From sequence record NC_027356.1: a DNA stretch of 64,000 nt, one strand, 5' to 3'. Made by a program: the position numbers and the translations under genes. Positions 3,141 through 63,502 of this stretch are shown here, in pieces (within the stretch, counting starts at the first letter, position 1; each line of letters begins with the position of its first letter). This stretch comes from Escherichia phage DT57C. The notes beneath the pieces are model-generated. The model had not been told where the DNA came from and did not search any database. It worked only from the letters and a program-made list of their open reading frames with translations.

Positions 3141-3533
3141 ATGGAACAAGTATATTGGCGTCAGATTGATCCTAGTTTGGTGAAGCGTGCGGAGAAGCTG
3201 CTACAACGTTGGTTGGGGGTAAGACAAGCCTCCTTCACTTTTCCGGAGCAGCAAATAGACGATCCCTGTGTTGGTGTTTTCCTATCAGGCTACGCTAGGG
3301 AAGTGGAATTGGATTGGAATGAATTGTCTGCTATGGGTTTAATTGTTGCACTAAATTTCTCTTTGTTCCATCCACGTGGCTTGGCCATAAGTCGTGTGCC
3401 TGATGACGGTTGTTCGCCCCATCTTTTACAGGTGGAAGATGATATTTGGGAGTACCCTCCAGATATTCTCAAAGAAGCTAAAGAACAATTAAATCGTGTT
3501 GGGATTTATGTTCTAGGCCTGAATGATGAATGA
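3141..3533 (+). CDS. hypothetical protein, tandem paralog 2 (130 aa)
   Basis: paralog of 2703..3131 (same conserved blocks). Confidence 0.55.
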   Translation: MEQVYWRQIDPSLVKRAEKLLQRWLGVRQASFTFPEQQIDDPCVGVFLSGYAREVELDWNELSAMGLIVALNFSLFHPRGLAISRVPDDGCSPHLLQVEDDIWEYPPDILKEAKEQLNRVGIYVLGLNDE

Positions 3534-3624
3534 TTTTTATTAGCTGAACTCTAATTACCGAGTCATTTTGGCTCGGTTTTCTCTATGTTCAAAGACACTG
3601 GTAGCAGCCCCTGGAAAAATTTAC

Positions 3625-3653
3625 TTGCTTGATGCTCAAAATCTTGATATAAT
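3625..3653 (+). promoter_or_regulatory. T5-type sigma70 early promoter
   Basis: TTGCTT (3625-3630), 17-bp spacer, TATAAT (3648-3653). Confidence 0.6.
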
Positions 3654-3671
3654 ATTTATATTGAATTGAGA

Positions 3672-4249
3672 GACATTAGTAAAAATTGATTTTGCTAATT
3701 TTTCTTAGTGAAGCTGACAAGGGATTTACGGCGAGAGGAATCGATGACCCGTAAATAGCTGCATAAGGTACGTTGCTAGAGCTTTACGAAAAAGTTTTTT
3801 CTTGTTTACAATCCGCGATACGGAACAGTTAGGCTGCCCCATTAAGGGTTGTTTTAACTGTTACGTGTTAGTTTTTAAACAAATAGTTAATAGAATACTT
3901 AGCGATCTACACCCCGTAGGAACCCTGGTAAGGCCTCGAAGCAACCTAGTGTGAGGTGGTTGTGAAGTGAGACGGGAAGAGTGAAAAACTCTGAGAAGTG
4001 ATGACGTAAGGTATACTGCATCTAGTATGAGCTAGTACATGAAGCATTAGGTGAGCAAATCTGGCTTAGCGGCCATCCTCAAGGATTTGTGCGGTATAGT
4101 GAAGCGGCAGTGTAGCGTGAAAGTGGAAGTTGCCACCCCACTTCAGTATTTGCGATTAATTTGTTGAGAAATTGACAGTAACAGTTGTTCTATTCTTTCT
4201 GAATAGTCCTAAAGAAAACTTATTTCATTTCCAACACAGGAGTATTGTT
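3672..4249 (+). other. long ORF-free leader; candidate structured RNA or origin-proximal region
   Basis: about 580 bp between a consensus promoter and the next CDS with no ORF of 60 aa or more in any frame; purine-rich GTGAAG-like repeats. Confidence 0.3.
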
Positions 4250-7039
4250 GTGTTTTCAATCCTACAAGGTCATGCAGGATTTCATCGCGATTTAGCCACA
4301 GGCAATTGGCGAGAAGTTAAAGCAGAAGATTATCTTTTTGCTAAAAGATTTTCCTCAAAGCATCCTGAAGGTAAACCAGCTTCAATGCCCTTCAAGTTTG
4401 ATGTAATTGATGAAGTTGATCCTCAAACCCTAGTAGAAATGCTCCCTCTTATGAGACGTTTAACGTCTGATCCTCATATCGTTGCGGTACGAGGTCGATG
4501 TCTTGCACCTAAAAATAATGTGCGGCGTAAGAAGGGCAACTTTAATGTATCTAATCCTAGTAGTATTATTGCTATGGACGTGGATGGTATTGTAGATACA
4601 GGTGGTTGTAACAAGTTTGATCTTGTTGGCATGGCTCGTCATATTATTAGGATGTTAAATAGTATTAGTGAGGATATGTTTCCTCTTGATGCAGGGTTTA
4701 TTGCTCATGCATCGTCTTCGGCTGGGCTAAAACCAGGTATCCGAATGCACTTAATACTAGAATCTAATGTTAAAGTAACTCAGGGTCAAATCAAGTTCTT
4801 ATTTACATCTATCAACGAAAGTAGTAGACAAAAGTATGGCTTTGATATTGCCGACTTAGCTTATTACTCTTCCGTACAGCTCCATTACTTTGCAGATCCT
4901 TTATTTACCGATGGTATAGTTGATCCGTTTAAAGCGGAGGGTGCTTCACGTCTGGTATTTGTTAAAGGCTCAAAAGTAAATTTACCTAATAATCTAGTTG
5001 ACTATGAAACAACTAGAGGGGAGTTTAAAGAGGAATTCTATTCTTTACTCGACCAAATTAAAGGTAAAAAAGCTGCTTCTGATAAAGTAGAGGAAACTAT
5101 CAGTGAGCTAGAAGAGGCTGATGATGGGGTATACTTACGTATTATTCCAAAGCTATATCACCGAGCGTTAGAGGATGGGGTAGATTTTGGTTGGCTAGAA
5201 AAAGAAATCCGCCCAGCTTTATCAGAATATATTGCAACTAAAGATAATAGCCGTAATATTCAAGACTACTTTAACAACGGTCGAAAACAGGCTCTGAAAG
5301 CATTTGTTAATAATTCTAAACGTGATATACCCGATGTTTTAAAAGGTATTCCGCTTAAAAAGCTAGAAACTAATTCACTAGAGACCGACAACTTCTTGAA
5401 ATTAAATACTGTACCACCAGAAGGCTATATGACTTTTGTAAAAGCAAGTCTAGGTACAGGTAAAACCACGGCTGTTGTGCGTTGGTTAGATTCAGGAGTT
5501 ATTAAAGGTAATTTCTTAGCAATTACCAACACTAGAGCACTGGTATCTTCAAATGCTAAGAAATTTAGTGCAGGACAATACGATAAGTCTGTAGATATGC
5601 TTAATTTTAAGCGTGGTGCTATTGACCGTATGTCCACAACCATTCACTCTTTGCATAAGTTTAAGAGTTTTATTGGTCAAATTGATGCAATCTTTATAGA
5701 CGAATGTGATGCAGTAATGAATGACCTATTATTCGCCCCCGTTGTTAAACAACGTCGTGAGTGTATTCAGGTTCTTCGTGATATTCTTGCAACTGCAAAA
5801 ATCATTATACTATCCGATGGTGACATTAGTTCTGAGACGATTGAAGCATATGGTTCTTTGATTGAGTTCGATAAACCAGTTGCATTCTATAATCACCACC
5901 GTAAAATGCTGTCAAAAGCTCATGCTTATGAGTTCCCTGATGAGTCCAGTATTTGGGTTGCACTTCAGACCTCTCTAGAGATGGGTGAGAAATCTATTCT
6001 AGTATCTGATTGTGGCCCAGATGAGCTGAATGAGAAGGGTATGGCACTACGTCGTAATACTGGTGCATTAGTTAAAGAAATCCATTCAAACTCCACTTCA
6101 GATGTGGATATTCGACGTATTCTGGATTATACAACTAATGAGCTAATTGATCAACAAATTGATTGCTTATTATGTAGTCCATCCGTAACGAGTGGAGTTG
6201 ACTTTAACTATTTTGATAACGTATTTGTTATTACTAGAACCAGTAATCAGGCGCCAAACATGCGTTTCCAAGCAATCAGGCGCGACCGTGGTGCTCAGAA
6301 TATCTATTATTTTATTGATAAATCCACTAGTGGATTCTCTGCAGGTTCTGAACAATATAATATTGATGAAGGTTGGCTGGAGTTAGCGCAGCAATTATAT
6401 GCACGTCGCAGGGAGCTGGAATCTAGAAACTATACTAGTACTTTACGTTATTACTTGCTTGATCAAGGTGCAACTATTGATATTTTCAGTGAAAGCTGGG
6501 GAACTATTGAAGGTGCTGGTAAAGAATACACAGAAGAGCGAATCAAAGCTATTCTGCACTCAACTCCTGATTATTGTGCTCCACGTCATGCGGATGCGTA
6601 TGAGGCTAAACTACTTATTGTTCGCTATTATCATCTTGAGTCTATTAAAGATGTAACAGTTGAGCATGTTGAACAATATATCAAAGATAAGCCGAATGAT
6701 CGAGCTGCATTCTTCCATAAGATGCACGAGATGTTCTGGGAAGATATTAAGAAGTGTTCAAATGTGACCATTAAACCATTCATAGAAGCTCTGAAAGGTA
6801 AGAAGAAAGATTTCTTCCTTAAAACGGGTCAGAGTGCTAACCCAAAATATGCTAGAATGTATCTTGGTATGATGGGTATTGGTAAAGATATGAACACGGA
6901 GAATATCGTAGACTGGTACAGAACCTATTGTAAAATCGAGTGTATGCCAATTCCTTTCAAATTTATGACAGAGGAAGAGAAGGCTATGGCAGAAGAAGCA
7001 ATGTCAGAGCTAGGTGCTAGAAATGACAGTGAAGAATAA
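4250..7039 (+). CDS. putative replication origin-binding protein / SF2-type helicase (P-loop NTPase)
   Basis: Walker A GTGKTT, Walker B FIDECD, motif VI-like QAIRRDRG; probable GTG start at 4250 with GGAG 7 nt upstream (track ORF opens at 4172). Confidence 0.65.
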   Translation: MFSILQGHAGFHRDLATGNWREVKAEDYLFAKRFSSKHPEGKPASMPFKFDVIDEVDPQTLVEMLPLMRRLTSDPHIVAVRGRCLAPKNNVRRKKGNFNVSNPSSIIAMDVDGIVDTGGCNKFDLVGMARHIIRMLNSISEDMFPLDAGFIAHASSSAGLKPGIRMHLILESNVKVTQGQIKFLFTSINESSRQKYGFDIADLAYYSSVQLHYFADPLFTDGIVDPFKAEGASRLVFVKGSKVNLPNNLVDYETTRGEFKEEFYSLLDQIKGKKAASDKVEETISELEEADDGVYLRIIPKLYHRALEDGVDFGWLEKEIRPALSEYIATKDNSRNIQDYFNNGRKQALKAFVNNSKRDIPDVLKGIPLKKLETNSLETDNFLKLNTVPPEGYMTFVKASLGTGKTTAVVRWLDSGVIKGNFLAITNTRALVSSNAKKFSAGQYDKSVDMLNFKRGAIDRMSTTIHSLHKFKSFIGQIDAIFIDECDAVMNDLLFAPVVKQRRECIQVLRDILATAKIIILSDGDISSETIEAYGSLIEFDKPVAFYNHHRKMLSKAHAYEFPDESSIWVALQTSLEMGEKSILVSDCGPDELNEKGMALRRNTGALVKEIHSNSTSDVDIRRILDYTTNELIDQQIDCLLCSPSVTSGVDFNYFDNVFVITRTSNQAPNMRFQAIRRDRGAQNIYYFIDKSTSGFSAGSEQYNIDEGWLELAQQLYARRRELESRNYTSTLRYYLLDQGATIDIFSESWGTIEGAGKEYTEERIKAILHSTPDYCAPRHADAYEAKLLIVRYYHLESIKDVTVEHVEQYIKDKPNDRAAFFHKMHEMFWEDIKKCSNVTIKPFIEALKGKKKDFFLKTGQSANPKYARMYLGMMGIGKDMNTENIVDWYRTYCKIECMPIPFKFMTEEEKAMAEEAMSELGARNDSEE

Positions 7040-50607: not shown

Positions 50608-51110
50608 AGCTACTTAGAAAGATTACTATATCCTCTAGGGCAACATTGAGATTCCATCTAATGTGGTATAGCATATATGACCCTTATTGTGTTATAGATG
50701 TAGTTTTTATTATTATAGTTATTTAATAGCACATACTCTATTCTGGGTATTTTGGCTTTAATAGCTACATCTAGTGATATAGTGTAGAGGTGTAATGTGG
50801 TGTTGCTTCCCAAACGTGTGCTCTCTGGCATTTAAATACTGTTTTTGTACGTTGGTTTACATATTCACCGACAATTTGGATTCCACGATCAGCTAATCTA
50901 ATATTTATATCTTTTATTGTTAGCTTTTGTCGACCCGTAGAATCTCCTACACCTCATGTAGAGCATTAATTTTTTCTTGTTTACGTTCTATTATGGGAGA
51001 AGTTCTCCCGATCAATGAATATAGTATACATAATCGTATCGAATTTGTAAAGGGGATTTTAAAATACAGGAATGGGATACCAACTGAGTAGTATCCCATC
51101 CTATACTTAT

Positions 51111-55032: not shown

Positions 55033-55208
55033 TTAGTATAAAACAAAAAGACATCCAAGTAAACTAAATTTTTTATTTCTTGGATGGTATATTGGCATAA
55101 ACCACTATGTAAGAAAAGTAGAAGTCCTTCTAGGAGTCCATAAGCACGGTTGGTTATGCACAAATTGTAGAATACTTTAAATATCACATTTATAGGAGCA
55201 TGAAAGAT

Positions 55209-55337
55209 ATGTCAAACAAGAGAAAAAGTAGACGCGGAGAAGTGTATGAGAGTTGGGTTAATAGTTTTGGACTTGGGACTATCCTATTTTTTATTTTCGT
55301 AGGTTTTTGGTTGGCAGCTATGGCGGGGTGGATTTAA
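55209..55337 (+). CDS. small membrane protein (42 aa)
   Basis: RBS AGGAG; basic N-terminus then one hydrophobic helix; TAATG coupling to the next ORF; below the ORF-track cutoff. Confidence 0.35.
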   Translation: MSNKRKSRRGEVYESWVNSFGLGTILFFIFVGFWLAAMAGWI

Positions 55338-55444
55338 TGGAATGGGTAATTGTTACATTGCTAGGGATTGTGATTATTGGGCAATGTATTTTAGATAATC
55401 ACTTAGCTAGAATTGAAACTTTACTAACGGAGAAACGTAAATGA
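55337..55444 (+). CDS. small membrane protein (35 aa)
   Basis: hydrophobic helix VIVTLLGIVIIG; ATGA coupling to the next ORF. Confidence 0.35.
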   Translation: MEWVIVTLLGIVIIGQCILDNHLARIETLLTEKRK

Positions 55445-55635
55445 TGGAAGTAGTAGCTACACTAATAGTAATACAAGTCTGGGCAACTTTCATTGTTTCT
55501 TATAACGCGTATGTTCGCCTAAAAACTCTAGAGGCTCAAGTAAAACAGCAACAAGTTACTCTAGAAAAGCTAGTACTACTGCAACGTTGTGATAGTACCC
55601 GCATTTTGCAAATTGAGAGGGAATTAGATGTTTAG
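55441..55635 (+). CDS. small membrane protein (64 aa)
   Basis: N-terminal hydrophobic helix followed by coiled-coil-like segment. Confidence 0.4.
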   Translation: MMEVVATLIVIQVWATFIVSYNAYVRLKTLEAQVKQQQVTLEKLVLLQRCDSTRILQIERELDV

Positions 55636-60104: not shown

Positions 60105-60341
60105 GGTATAAACTCCAGTTATTTGATGGATTGTTCCGCATTACCTGCTAAAAAATAATAACAGGTAATAAGAAAAAATCCGCTCACCGTTAAAATCAAT
60201 TTAAGGAACTCCACACAGGCCGCTATATCCCGTTAGGGGGCGGGGCACATTATGGCAAGTACCGGCCGTCAAATTTTACCAAGTTATCGCTCTTGTTGAA
60301 TCGGGTACATTTTAAAGCCTATCGGCTAGGGCGTCAAATTA

Positions 60342-60509
60342 TTTTTCGTTTTCTTTTAAATTAGAATTCTCCCAACTGAATTGCATCTCGCAAAATATTT
60401 TCCCATCTTTATGATGGTAAGCGATCTCGCTCCCGTGGTTAGCACAGAAAGCGATCACTGCCTCAGCTTGTTCTACCGTGATATTGTTGGCCGTTTCTTT
60501 GATTTTCAT
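60342..60509 (-). CDS. small hypothetical protein (55 aa)
   Basis: translated codon by codon; strong RBS AAGGAGA 6 nt upstream of ATG; below the ORF-track cutoff. Confidence 0.4.
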
Positions 60510-61135
60510 ATCGTCGTCTCCTTATAAGGTTAATAAGTTTGCCGCCGATGGGCTTTAAAATGCACCTGATTTTTAAAGAGCGCGGCGGTAAACTTTCCGC
60601 CGTGTAGTTCGTCATTGCCGCCCTACGAGATAAATAATAGGGAATACCCAAAAAAGGTGCAACCTTAATTTTGTAAAGAAATGTAAAGAAAGCAAATACC
60701 CGCACCGCGTCCGGCGATCGCCCAAGTTTAAAGGAAACAGGCGCGCGGATACCATAAAACCGAGCTGATTGGCAAGTAATTTTTTCATTTTTATTTGCCT
60801 TGCCCTACTTGACAAAACTTAAAAAGCTCGTGGTGACGATAAACGGGCTATCCCTTTATGATGGGATACCTGAAAAATTTACCGCGTTGTAGGACGTTTT
60901 AGGCCGCTTATCTTCGATTTAACAAATATTTAACAAAAGCAAAATTGAAAAATAGTTTGAGAAGGTATTGACTTTTTAAAATCAAGACTAAACGAGTTAT
61001 TTTAAAAAATTAATTAATTGACTTTTATTTGTTGTTGTGTAGTAGAAAGATAGCAGACTAATAATTGCTAGAATGATAATCATGCTGGTGATTGTAACAG
61101 ACTGAACTATTAGCAGACTACTGATCCCGGAAAAT

Positions 61136-61175
61136 CTCATTAGCCAACTAACTATCTCATTAGCCAACTAACTAT
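61136..61175. repeat. 20-bp direct repeat, 2 copies
   Basis: CTCATTAGCCAACTAACTAT twice in tandem. Confidence 0.8.
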
Positions 61176-61185
61176 TTCATAAGTT

Positions 61186-61365
61186 ATAATAACTATAAAA
61201 ATAATCACCGTTAAAATAATCACTATAAAAATAATCACCATTAAAATAATAACTATAGAAATAATCACCATTATAATAATCACCATTAAAATAATCACTA
61301 TAAAAATAATCACCATTAAAATAATCACTATAAAAATAATCACCATTATTATAATCACTATAAGA
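61186..61365. repeat. 15-bp tandem iteron-like array, 12 units
   Basis: alternating ATAATCACCATTAAA and ATAATCACTATAAAA units. Confidence 0.9.
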
Positions 61366-61401
61366 AACTATCGGCTTAAGTGAGAACCACTATCATTTAA
61401 G

Positions 61402-61510
61402 TTATCCACAACGTTATCCACAGCACAAAATGATTTGACACGATAGGCGGCGATATAAAGATTTATCCACAGACTTATCCACAGGTTATCCTACTGTATA
61501 TTTATCCAGG
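61402..61510 (+). promoter_or_regulatory. DnaA-box cluster A (4 perfect TTATCCACA plus 2 degenerate)
   Basis: TTATCCACA at 61402, 61414, 61463, 61475; variants TTATCCTAC and TTATCCAGG. Confidence 0.7.
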
Positions 61511-61880
61511 GTAAAAAGATAGTGTTTACAACTGCAATCAATTTTGAGCGGCCTAAAACGCTTTCTAACGAGCTGATCGCTGTAGGGTAATATTAAAGTA
61601 AAGCCTTTACCCGTCGGCCTAGAGGCTTCGCCGTGTTTTGCTCTTTACTGCACCGCTGCGCGGTTAGCATAAAACTAGGTGTTAGGCAAGAAAAATAAAA
61701 AGTAAAGTAAACGTTGCCCCTAGAAAGAAAATAATTTTACCGGTAACATCGAAAGCGGGTAATAATTAACCTAATGTAAAGTTTTGTAAGGCCCGCCATA
61801 ATCAGCGGCCTTTTTTGTTATACTGCCCTTACACCGTTTAAGGACGGTTAAAAATTTCCCGAAAAATTTGGAGGCTTAAA

Positions 61881-62060
61881 ATGGTTATTTTTCGATCTAT
61901 TCTGGCGGGTATCTTGGGCGCTATTTTAACTCTATTTGCTACCGCTTACGGTATTCAAGATTCTTATTGCGGTTTAGTAAATACTAAACCTATGGTTATT
62001 ATTGGCGCGGGTATCGCTGTTTTTTCTTATTTGCTGGGCTGCATGAATAAAGGAGAATAA
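61881..62060 (+). CDS. small membrane protein (59 aa)
   Basis: RBS GGAGG; two hydrophobic segments; first ORF of a coupled small-gene cassette. Confidence 0.4.
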   Translation: MVIFRSILAGILGAILTLFATAYGIQDSYCGLVNTKPMVIIGAGIAVFSYLLGCMNKGE

Positions 62061-62062
62061 AA

Positions 62063-62275
62063 ATGATCCGCAACGTTTCTCTTGCTCGTTCCAAAGGTTT
62101 TAAGCTGGTGGATGTAAACACGTTCGAGCGTCCTGGTTGTAAAATCGAATATATAGCGCGGAATAAAAACGCTTTCCGCGTTACAGAAAAGAGATTCGAT
62201 AAACGCGGCAACGTGATAGCTGAAACGGTTAAATATTTTGCCACCTTTTACGCGGCCTTTCGTGGGGTATTATGA
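62063..62275 (+). CDS. hypothetical protein (70 aa)
   Basis: track ORF; RBS AAAGGAGAA upstream. Confidence 0.4.
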   Translation: MIRNVSLARSKGFKLVDVNTFERPGCKIEYIARNKNAFRVTEKRFDKRGNVIAETVKYFATFYAAFRGVL

Positions 62276-62397
62276 AGAGCGTTGTTATTGTTATCCTTGC
62301 AATGGTTGGCGGTTTTACCACCACCTTGTTTAGAAATGATCCTCTTTTGCTAGGGATCTTTATGCTTTTATCTGGTTATCTGATCGGGAGGTTATAA
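62272..62397 (+). CDS. small membrane protein (about 41 aa)
   Basis: ATGA overlap with the upstream ORF; hydrophobic; my manual reading of this stretch disagreed by 1 nt with the ORF track, so coordinates are approximate. Confidence 0.25.
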   Translation: MKSVVIVILAMVGGFTTTLFRNDPLLLGIFMLLSGYLIGRL

Positions 62398-62398
62398 A

Positions 62399-62743
62399 AT
62401 GGTGATTTATGAAGGTGATCGCCTTGTTGCTGATTGCCGTCCGGCATTGTTAGCAAACTACTTAAACCAGCTTTCGCCAGTATATAAAGGCGTTATAAAT
62501 ATTTATGAAGGCGGGGCGCATTATAAGATTAATGCGGTCGTTGCCCGTGAACTAGCGTTTCAATTTTTAACCTTTTCATCTTGCAATATTCAGGTCATGG
62601 GTGAGGCGTTAATTGCAGAAAATGAAGATGATTTTATTAATATCTTTCGCAAGATATGCACCGAGCGCCTGATAATGAAAGGGGCATATATTCAATCCAC
62701 TGCGGATAGTATTGAAACGGCTTTTCGAAAGGTGGCACAATGA
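62399..62743 (+). CDS. hypothetical protein (114 aa)
   Basis: track ORF; coupled start; no recognisable motif. Confidence 0.45.
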   Translation: MVIYEGDRLVADCRPALLANYLNQLSPVYKGVINIYEGGAHYKINAVVARELAFQFLTFSSCNIQVMGEALIAENEDDFINIFRKICTERLIMKGAYIQSTADSIETAFRKVAQ

Positions 62744-62881
62744 AGCTATATATTTTCGCGGGTAATGTTGAGGCTGCAAATGATTCCGCTGGTGGCGATA
62801 GCGTTCGCCATTATTGGCAAAATTATATTTACTAGGCGTAATGATCACGGGGCACAACTATCAGGGAGTGCCCCTGATTCT

Positions 62882-62904
62882 CAAATGAGAATGATTCTCA
62901 TTTG
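62882..62904. promoter_or_regulatory. perfect 23-bp palindrome, operator-like
   Basis: CAAATGAGAAT-G-ATTCTCATTTG; same AATGAGAAT core as the 23-bp tandem array. Confidence 0.6.
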
Positions 62905-63079
62905 ACCGCGCCCGCGATGGTTAGCACACTAATGATTAGGGTGTTACGTGTCGCCTTGTGTGATCGTTAGCGGGCTAACTAATTTTCAAGCCTCCTCCAG
63001 ATTTGCCCTTGTTTTAGTATCCCCATCAAAATAAAACGCGTTAGAAAGCGATTCAGGGCGTTTTAGGCCTATATTAGAA

Positions 63080-63208
63080 TTATCCACTGCGTAGGAATAC
63101 TGTATATTTATACAGTAGAATAACCTGGGGATAAGTCGGTGGATAACGCTTCAAAATGGCTAGAATTTTGTCAAGGCAAATCGTGCTGTTGATAAGTCTG
63201 TGGATAAC
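63080..63208 (-). promoter_or_regulatory. DnaA-box cluster B, inverted relative to cluster A
   Basis: TTATCCACT at 63080 (+); minus-strand TTATCCACC (63138-63146) and TTATCCACA (63199-63207); 17-mer TTATCCACAGACTTATC shared in inverted orientation with 61463-61479; 8-bp-arm inverted repeat at 63099-63116. Confidence 0.65.
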
Positions 63209-63230
63209 TTAAATAACAGTGTTTCTCACT

Positions 63231-63502
63231 TCCGTTTTTAAATGCGAATCATTATCATTTGCATTCCACTTCTTAAATGAGAATCATTTCACTTCTTGAA
63301 TAGTTCTCATTCCCTTTCTTAAATGAGAATCATTTCACTTCTTGAATAGTTCTCATTTCACTTCTTGAATAGTTCTCATTCCACTTCTTAAATGAGAATC
63401 ATTCCACTTCTTAAATGAGAATCATTCCACCTCTTAAATGAGAATGATTATCATTCGCATTCCACTTCTTAAATGCGAATGATAATCATTCTCATTCGCA
63501 TT
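63231..63502. repeat. 23-bp tandem array (8 units) with palindromic flanks
   Basis: units CCACTTCTTAAATGAGAATCATT and TCACTTCTTGAATAGTTCTCATT in order A-B-A-B-B-A-A-A at 63266-63449, flanked by AATGCGAAT...GCATT palindromic elements. Confidence 0.9.

Follow-up and report, generated by a model that had tools for sequence, protein, structure and literature searches.

Upstream of the D2 helicase gene of Escherichia phage DT57C lies a noncoding gap whose + strand transcript very probably contains a conserved structured RNA, judging from a comparison of related phage sequences. We examined this gap within a 64,000-nucleotide (nt) stretch of the phage genome (NC_027356.1), hereafter the window, and all coordinates are positions within it. 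The transcript was predicted to form a nested fold of ~420 nt (3796-4218), and the comparison showed an evolutionary constraint on the + strand that is specific to T5-like phages, is not protein-coding, and corresponds to no known RNA family. The reading we prefer, at a probability of roughly 0.48, is that the gap RNA serves as a long 5' leader acting in cis on the D2 message. The window belongs to a T5-like phage (Tequintavirus), its best DNA matches being Salmonella phages SP3 and NR01 and Escherichia phage Gostya9. T5 has long served as a classical model, and many of the phages related to it are isolated for use in therapy and biocontrol.

Compensatory changes within the leader

RNAalifold, applied to 16 Tequintavirus/Epseptimavirus leaders, returned a nested structure of 86 pairs. 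Within this set 99.4% of the cells were paired, compared with ~40% when partners were slid, and 21 pairs showed double changes, compared with 0-4. The same long-range helices were obtained from an independent cross-genus set (window-type Tequintavirus, Pectobacterium phages DU_PP_V and My1, and Klebsiella phage VAC51), where 91.5% of the cells were paired vs 38-48%, and double-change pairs numbered 49 vs 12-16. Folding of single sequences was uninformative (z about -2 on both strands).

A coding control speaks against taking these counts at face value. The identical procedure, run on a 457-nt piece of the helicase gene next to the leader in the same genomes, also paired 88% of the cells and gave 18 double-change pairs, with an unfavourable covariation term (+1.6 vs -7.9 for the leader). 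Because the structures were predicted from the alignments in which the changes were then counted, and because the coding control behaved similarly, such predict-then-count statistics are inflated. To avoid circularity, a structure predicted solely from Tequintavirus/Epseptimavirus was then scored on the three other genomes. Double changes kept pairing in 33/53 cases (62%) for the leader vs 14/47 (30%) for the coding control (Fisher p=0.0014), and any change kept pairing in 48% vs 27% of cases (Fisher p=9e-5). Cells with G.U outnumbered cells with A.C by 208 to 4 and by 94 to 9; this imbalance argues that the constraint acts on the + strand as a single strand, and not on the minus strand or on duplex DNA.

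Support from covariation was concentrated in the core helices, and the long-range helices were compensated in five lineages. Among 34 distinct Markadamsvirinae leaders there were no broken pairs in helices P3, P5, P8 and P9, which occurred in 3, 5, 4 and 2 versions, respectively. P3 (3855-3864 / 4178-4187) reads UAACUGUUAC/GUAACAGUUG in the window and UAACUAUUAC/GUAAUAGUUG in most T5-type leaders, with T5 itself being a G.U intermediate; in other genera it becomes UGAUUAUUAU/AUAAUAAUUC (DU_PP_V) and UGGUUAUUAU/AUAAUAACCC (My1). P5 (3902-3912 / 4110-4118) has five paired versions, every lineage has its own paired sequence at P8 (4055-4062 / 4083-4090), and the UAGC-loop hairpin P9 is compensated in My1 (GACU/GGUC). 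Helices P7, P12 and P16 showed swaps inside the window-type clade, P7 changing to CCCAU/AUGGG and P16 from GAAGUGG/CCACUUC to GAAGGGG/CCCCUUC. At the P7 site My1 has UUCGU/GCGAA-type changes, and T5-type leaders have GUACCCU/GGGGUGC at the same place.

Compensatory pairs above the controls, together with the strand specificity of the G.U to A.C ratio, are features of a structured noncoding RNA. An initial annotation of the sequence had suggested a structured leader or a noncoding RNA here; the conserved multi-helix + strand fold with its compensatory changes bears out the structured part of this suggestion, and leaves the choice between a cis leader and a separate RNA undecided.

The gap and its promoter

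The noncoding interval runs from 3534 to 4249, wider than the segment 3672-4249 to which the initial annotation had drawn attention, and whose coordinates and main content were found correct. It is without a credible gene and is the sole uncovered stretch of more than 225 nt within the first 50 kb of the window. No open reading frame (ORF) of 60 amino acids (aa) or more occurs within 3672-4249 in any frame, as had been reported, the longest being 50, 40, 38, 38 and 33 aa. The region had also been described as GC-richer (in guanine plus cytosine) than its surroundings; this held for the 3' half (3901-4170; 47% GC, 58% purine) and failed for the whole, at 40.5% vs 40.0% for the window.

The last gene of the upstream operon, a DUF7415 gene, ends at 3533 and is followed by an intrinsic terminator at 3557-3577 (feature 3557-3585, + strand), made up of a 9-bp GC-containing hairpin and a T-run; the T5 record (NC_005859) has an annotated terminator at the homologous site. 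In some relatives (Shivani, 2016-2468 of the retrieved locus; S132, 1-268 of the retrieved locus) an HNH homing endonuclease gene lies between the DUF7415 gene and the leader promoter. The promoter itself (3614-3653, + strand) is of the strong T5 early class, with an A/T-rich upstream tract, a -35 element TTGCTT (3625-3630), a 17-nt spacer, and an extended -10 element TGATATAAT (3645-3653). It is the near-consensus T5-type promoter of the initial annotation (3625-3653), is kept in all aligned relatives, and is annotated as a promoter at the homologous site in the T5 reference record. Transcription of the leader would start near 3660.

The early promoter signature TATAAT-N(12-13)-TTGAGAG occurs four times in the window (1901, 3648, 7289 and 19359), where 0.07 occurrences were expected. 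None of the other three signature promoters has a comparable leader; two are followed within ~35 nt by a listed ATG (1935, 7326). The ~590-nt leader is therefore exceptional for its promoter class. At the promoters at 1901 and 7289 the GAGAG of the signature merges into the ribosome-binding site (RBS) of the following gene.

Anatomy of the leader RNA

The anatomy was derived from an alignment of 13 Markadamsvirinae sequences. The leader is ~590 nt long in DT57C and ~490 nt long in T5, which is without a 97-nt insert. Its 5'-terminal hairpin (3667-3706, + strand) pairs UUAGUAAAA (3676-3684) with UUUUGCUAA (3690-3698), possibly extended by GAGAGA/UUUCUU, and is followed by a U-tract (3699-3706). 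The hairpin is invariant across Markadamsvirinae and is compensated in DU_PP_V (UUAGACAAG/UUUGUCUAA) and in Providencia phage PR1 (UUAGGCG/CGCCUAA). Hairpin and U-tract are annotated as a 'terminator' in phage Shivani; a terminator scan passed over the A/U-rich stem, which may stabilise the messenger RNA (mRNA) or be a weak attenuator.

The main fold, all of it on the + strand, could be closed by helix P1, in which AAGAAAA (4212-4218) can pair with UUUUCUU (3797-3803); this A-rich strand and the 3' hairpin before it are invariant in Markadamsvirinae and were unconfirmed in other genera. The P2 hairpin (3808-3852) lies in an invariant 5' block, with its apical stem GGAACAGU (3822-3829) / GCUGCCCC (3833-3840) and the motif GAACAGUnnGGCUGC, which is kept across genera. 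Next follows a long irregular rod of ~35-45 bp built of long-range pairings. Its 5' strand (3855-3912) consists of P3 (3855-3864), 3878-3888, 3893-3899 and P5 (3902-3912), and pairs with 4110-4187; its 3' strand (4110-4187) consists of P5 (4110-4118), 4145-4151, 4154-4165 and P3 (4178-4187).

Between the strands of the rod, arm A (3913-3993) is closed by P7 (CCCGU 3913-3917 / ACGGG 3972-3976), which is followed by the hairpin AGAGU-GAAAA-ACUCU (3978-3992), with a GNRA-like loop. Arm B (4010-4100) consists of P12 (4010-4019 / 4091-4100) around P8 and P9, the latter being the hairpin GGCU-UAGC-GGCC (4063-4074) that bears the universal motif CUUAGCGG. Hairpin P16 (4119-4144) pairs GAAAGUGG (4119-4126) with CCACUUC (4138-4144) around a conserved 11-nt loop, AAGUUGCCACC. 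The fold finishes with a 3' hairpin and an A-rich strand (4190-4218), namely CUAUUC/GAAUAG at 4190-4206 and the AAGAAAA of P1, and it ends ~30 nt upstream of the Shine-Dalgarno (SD) sequence of the helicase gene. The loops of interest are CUUAGCGG and GUUGCCACC. GGUGG in arm A (3956-3960) is complementary to CCACC in the P16 loop (4133-4137); this inverted repeat is a candidate pseudoknot, and T5-type leaders have GUUAU and AUAAC at comparable places. The helices and loops are thus defined for mutation with compensatory controls.

An optional insert and two versions of the centre

The 97-nt insert (3707-3803, + strand) is an optional domain with a closing stem GUGAAGCU (3708-3715) / AGCUUUAC (3780-3787), its inner fold coming from minimum free energy prediction alone. 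Its boundaries are ambiguous by 8 nt, as the direct repeat TTTTTCTT is present at 3699-3706 and at 3796-3803. The insert is missing in most relatives and was found in 49 phage records, with one copy per genome and only at the leader locus; carriers include Gostya9, NR01, SP3, DT571/2, Yersinia phage phiR2-01, and ende. In phage ende the closing stem is AUGAAGCU/AGCUUUAU, a compensatory change from G:C to A:U.

A 70-nt block at 3796-3866 is invariant, and an invariant 3' block extends into the SD sequence. The centre between them (~300 nt, 3867-4170) exists in exactly two versions in Markadamsvirinae, window-type and T5-type, which are 50-65% identical and within 2 nt of each other in length; both contain invariant islands such as GGCUUAGCGGCC (4063-4074). 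A third version was sought in S132, KPP2018, EC100 and ende, all of which proved to be T5-type. The window-type centre is closer to the Pectobacterium and Klebsiella phage versions than the T5-type centre is. Insert, centre and 3' leader are combined differently in mosaics, DT571/2 for instance having the insert with a T5-type centre. When the window-type (16 sequences) and T5-type (18 sequences) leaders were folded separately, almost superimposable architectures were obtained: an outer stem, P2, the rod of ~35-45 bp, arm A with P7, a small hairpin (with its GAAAA loop in the window-type), arm B with P12 and P8/P9, P16, and the 3' hairpin.

Distribution of the leader

In all the Demerecviridae lineages examined (Tequintavirus, Epseptimavirus, Sugarlandvirus of Klebsiella, Myunavirus-like Pectobacterium phages, Providencia, Proteus and Aeromonas TS3 phages, and two Vibrio-phage lineages), a gene-poor gap preceded the orthologous helicase gene on the same strand. 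The initial annotation had envisaged that the region might be unconserved and show no conservation of structure; both the gap and the structure were found to be conserved. A covariance model of the CUUAGCGG module (R1) recovered the Sugarlandvirus and Pectobacterium phage copies at E<=1e-13, and + strand copies of the CUUAGCGG hairpin motif occur in the gaps of the Providencia, Proteus and Aeromonas phages. Clear homology is limited to Markadamsvirinae, Sugarlandvirus and the Pectobacterium phages. In the Vibrio phages a gap of 650-800 nt is kept, with a centre that is unalignable even where the helicases are 69-76% identical. Aeromonas phage TS3 has a 1.6 kb gene-free gap (218-1809 of the retrieved locus) between a divergent nrdD gene and the helicase gene, with two + strand CTTAGCGG motifs, one of which is the loop of a perfect hairpin (CCCGAAAA-GCTTAGCGG-TTTTTCGGG).

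Searching window positions 3400-4500 against Rfam 15 at E<=1 returned nothing but a snoRNA match attributable to chance (E 0.25, 17 bits vs 36), and nine homologous loci returned no match at the gathering thresholds. A 21-base two-motif pattern, which relies on the motifs being a constant 218-227 nt apart, found only T5-like metagenome contigs and nothing real in 185,579 species genomes; its four matches in bacterial genomes and five other metagenome matches had no further similarity and were set aside as chance. A 14-base motif scan of IMG/VR was too unspecific to use, its matches being mostly chance. In the pattern scans of metagenomes and species genomes no copy of the element was seen apart from the helicase gene. 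T5-like sequence was present in records PP892525.1, MG065692.1 and OR847565.1, labelled Felixounavirus (I14), Campylobacter phage C13 and Listeria phage LM 4-11-1; these records are probably mislabelled or contaminated.

No description of the leader element was found in the literature searched. The leader is a new RNA family of a familiar general kind, unusual for how large it is, for occurring in two isostructural versions, and for having an optional domain. Few conserved RNA folds of bacteria and phages exceed 300-400 nt, and the ones that are understood perform sophisticated functions.

A proposed leader acting in cis on the D2 message

The sole helicase promoter of Markadamsvirinae precedes the fold, with no terminator between promoter and gene, as is the case for a 5' untranslated region (UTR); the fold is therefore necessarily present in the only D2 mRNA of these phages. 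A role in cis on D2 expression is a tentative proposal, not far from an even bet. Transcription would run rightward from the strong early promoter through the gap into the D2 helicase gene, the ~420 nt of leader at 3796-4218 would fold into the conserved multi-domain structure, and this fold, as an RNA in cis, would set the helicase output of a very strong promoter. It could do so by occluding the initiation region, through cleavage or other processing of the rod (e.g., by RNase III), through a stabilising effect of the 5' hairpin, or by offering its conserved loops as binding sites to a phage or host factor. Occlusion could involve a putative closing helix, UCUUGU (3800-3805) / ACAGGA (4236-4241), by which the U-rich 5' strand can pair with the SD region; its SD-adjacent position is G:C, G.U, C:G, U:A and A:U in five lineages. 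The helicase translation-initiation region (4236-4252, + strand) comprises this ACAGGA, the SD sequence AGGAG (4238-4242), and the start codon GTG (4250-4252).

The nearest parallels are the lambda N leader (with its RNase III site) and the translational operators of T4 genes 32 and 43. Like the T5-like leader, these RNA elements belong to the 5' UTR of an early gene or a replication gene, lie on the gene's own strand and abut the RBS; a further shared feature is a long duplex that could be processed. They differ in measuring tens to ~100 nt, as against ~420 nt and several domains in the T5-like leader, to which they have no sequence relationship; for the T5-like leader no binding protein is known, and its regulatory role is putative.

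Several points weigh against a cis-acting leader of this kind. The fold is far above the size of known translational operators. Several alternative closing pairings exist, and the thermodynamically predicted SD partner differs between lineages. Only about five lineages are independent, and the alignments took no account of RNA structure; model R1 was marginal in the Providencia phages and found no match in the Proteus, Aeromonas and Vibrio phages, and fold homology was not demonstrable in the last three lineages. The helicase message of Proteus phage Stubb need not carry the leader, since a second perfect promoter separates the noncoding block from the helicase gene. The two perfect sigma-70 promoters of Stubb (12/12; 805-833 and 1535-1564 of the retrieved locus) flank ~700 nt of noncoding sequence, an arrangement from which it follows that transcription of the block, or its RNA, may matter independently. 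Two CUUAGC(G/C)G hairpin-like motifs occur in the Stubb block.

Alternatives to a leader in cis

The alternative that survives best, itself unlikely, is a stable noncoding RNA that functions independently (e.g., as scaffold or sponge for a phage or host protein) and would be made from the leader by processing of the rod, its adjacency to the helicase gene reflecting co-expression only. The size and multi-domain complexity of the fold, its optional domain, the GNRA-like and sequence-conserved loops, and the very strong promoter resemble large structured noncoding RNAs more than operators; the rod of ~35-45 bp could be an RNase III site, and the Stubb arrangement uncouples the block from helicase expression. 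GOLLD, ROOL and OLE are likewise several hundred nt long, with many covarying helices and optional domains, and were without a known function when discovered. GOLLD and ROOL are often carried by phages or prophages and are often found near tRNA genes. The T5-like leader differs from these RNAs in having no Rfam model match and in lying upstream of one specific gene in one phage family. It was never found apart from the helicase gene, no terminator or defined 3' end was seen between the fold and the helicase start, and the window holds no complementary target for the conserved loop, all of which counts against a free-standing RNA.

Taken more broadly, the proposal that the fold is the RNA component of the T5 primary origin (a structured primer or activator, phage-encoded but analogous to ColE1 RNA II, handing off to D2), or else a large catalytic or scaffold RNA processed from the leader, has a probability of only about one in five. 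The origin version taken singly is slightly less probable still. Here a primer or activator RNA of a transcription-dependent origin would form a persistent RNA-DNA hybrid or open the A/T-rich segment at ~4150-4235, and D2 with the phage polymerase would start replication there, as at ColE1 RNA II or the promoter-dependent origins of T7 and T4. The promoter would direct a noncoding transcript across the site, as at transcription-primed origins; a strong promoter and ~0.5 kb of noncoding transcribed DNA stand beside the proposed initiator helicase. ColE1 RNA II, T7 phi1.1A/B and T4 oriF/oriG similarly combine a strong promoter with a ~0.5 kb noncoding transcript near replication functions. ColE1 RNA II resembles the leader further in its conserved fold, which it likewise requires, and the T5-like phage encodes a family A polymerase. 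The + strand at 3901-4170 is G-rich, with 58% purine and a GC skew of ~+0.22, the locus lies at ~49% of the T5 genome, and the separate promoters of the Stubb noncoding block and helicase gene suggest that transcription of the block is kept independently. Multiple internal origins reported for T5 (Bourguignon 1976, as cited in PMC3632103) also favour this alternative.

At the DNA level no origin signature was found at the locus, neither iterons nor a skew switch, and the compact fold, with long-range helices closing both ends, argues against an extended hybrid. In contrast to the ColE1, T7 and T4 origins, the T5-like transcript appears to run into a protein gene, and no pair of G/C tracts that might form a hybrid was identified. 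A weak match of the helicase N-terminus to an RNase-like domain, which would have fitted an R-loop model, was gone once a family profile was used. To our knowledge the origins of T5 have never been mapped to sequence, which we also count against a primer RNA. Lying before the proposed initiator, the leader offers a handle both on the control and start of T5 DNA replication, which is very efficient, and on the purpose of large phage RNAs.

An origin of the iteron type, with repeated sites for the adjacent origin-binding helicase, had been offered in the initial annotation and is very improbable. The locus does adjoin a UL9-like helicase gene, and GTGAAG, the type of purine-rich motif pointed out in the initial annotation, shows a mild local excess (3 copies vs ~0.35 expected). 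The copies are irregularly spaced, one lies in the optional insert, and the T5-type version lacks them though the helicase is 88% identical. In place of a repeat array there are two 2-copy families only, of 9-10 nt and irregular spacing. The compensatory changes and the 208:4 preference for G.U over A.C would be unexpected for duplex binding sites. Like the herpesvirus oriS/UL9 system, the locus has a neighbouring protein with the UL9 helicase core (PF02399); in contrast to oriS, the T5-like gap is without a palindrome and flanking boxes or repeated sites, and its constraint is on single-strand pairing of the + strand. GC skew showed no switch at the leader locus, the sole switch in the window being near 26 kb. 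That sign change adjoins a segment (26-30 kb) that is markedly GC-richer than the rest, at 48% vs ~39%.

Least credible of all is a small or decayed protein-coding gene (or genes) in the gap, as in some GenBank records: + strand ORFs of 50 and 38 aa do exist, the 38-aa GTG ORF being similarly placed in both versions of the centre, and tiny coding sequences (CDS) are annotated here in some records (three in phage I14 and three in Klebsiella phage VAC51), but no ORF is common across lineages, the 50-aa ORF is restricted to one version, the 38-aa ORF is shortened to ~20 aa in Epseptimavirus and is absent from VAC51 and My1, no gap ORF has a PHROG match, and most genome records leave the gap empty. 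Elsewhere in relatives the annotation is blank or consists of inconsistent ORFs of 30-55 aa. The initial annotation had allowed that relatives might carry a conserved gene at this place; ORF comparison across lineages and PHROG revealed none, and annotation of small ORFs there is therefore disfavoured. In hundreds of genome records this interval of 0.5-0.7 kb is either blank or filled with spurious tiny CDS.

The downstream helicase and other features of the window

The gene that follows the leader (4250-7039, + strand) encodes a 929-aa superfamily 2 (SF2) helicase, T5.108 or the 'D2' bipolar helicase, annotated as 'replication origin binding protein'. The SF2 assignment of the initial annotation was borne out by a modest Herpes_ori_bp match and by identity with the T5 D2 helicase studied biochemically (PMC3632103). 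D2 was characterised as a bipolar helicase by Wong et al. (2013), who proposed it as a replication initiator (PMC3632103). The Pfam PF02399 match lies at residues ~392-533, as in the D2 of Wong et al. (2013). The T5 record NC_005859 (59545-62331; 63122 onward) is in conflict over the name, as it calls T5.111 'D2'; the D2 helicase of Wong et al. (2013), with PF02399 at residues 392-532, is T5.108, the gene downstream of the leader. An ORF listed from TTG at 4172 is merely an upstream in-frame extension of the helicase, the real start being GTG at 4250. In the KPP2018 record the helicase start is annotated 135 nt downstream of the start in relatives. In T5 an HNH gene (hegI) directly follows the helicase gene.

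The N-terminal half of the helicase (residues 1-390; window 4250-5419) gave no Pfam or PDB family match, and a single-sequence AlphaFold model of it was unusable (predicted local distance difference test score 34.5). Twelve genera-spanning homologues have in this half the invariant residues D110-x-D112, S155/S157/G159...G163-I-R-x-H167, and D202. These residues show a tentative resemblance to motifs I-III of archaeo-eukaryotic primases (AEP).

No transfer RNA (tRNA) or transfer-messenger RNA (tmRNA) genes were found in the window. Other ORF-poor stretches (300-725 nt) lie near its right end, at 50608-51110, 55033-55555 and 60159-63468.

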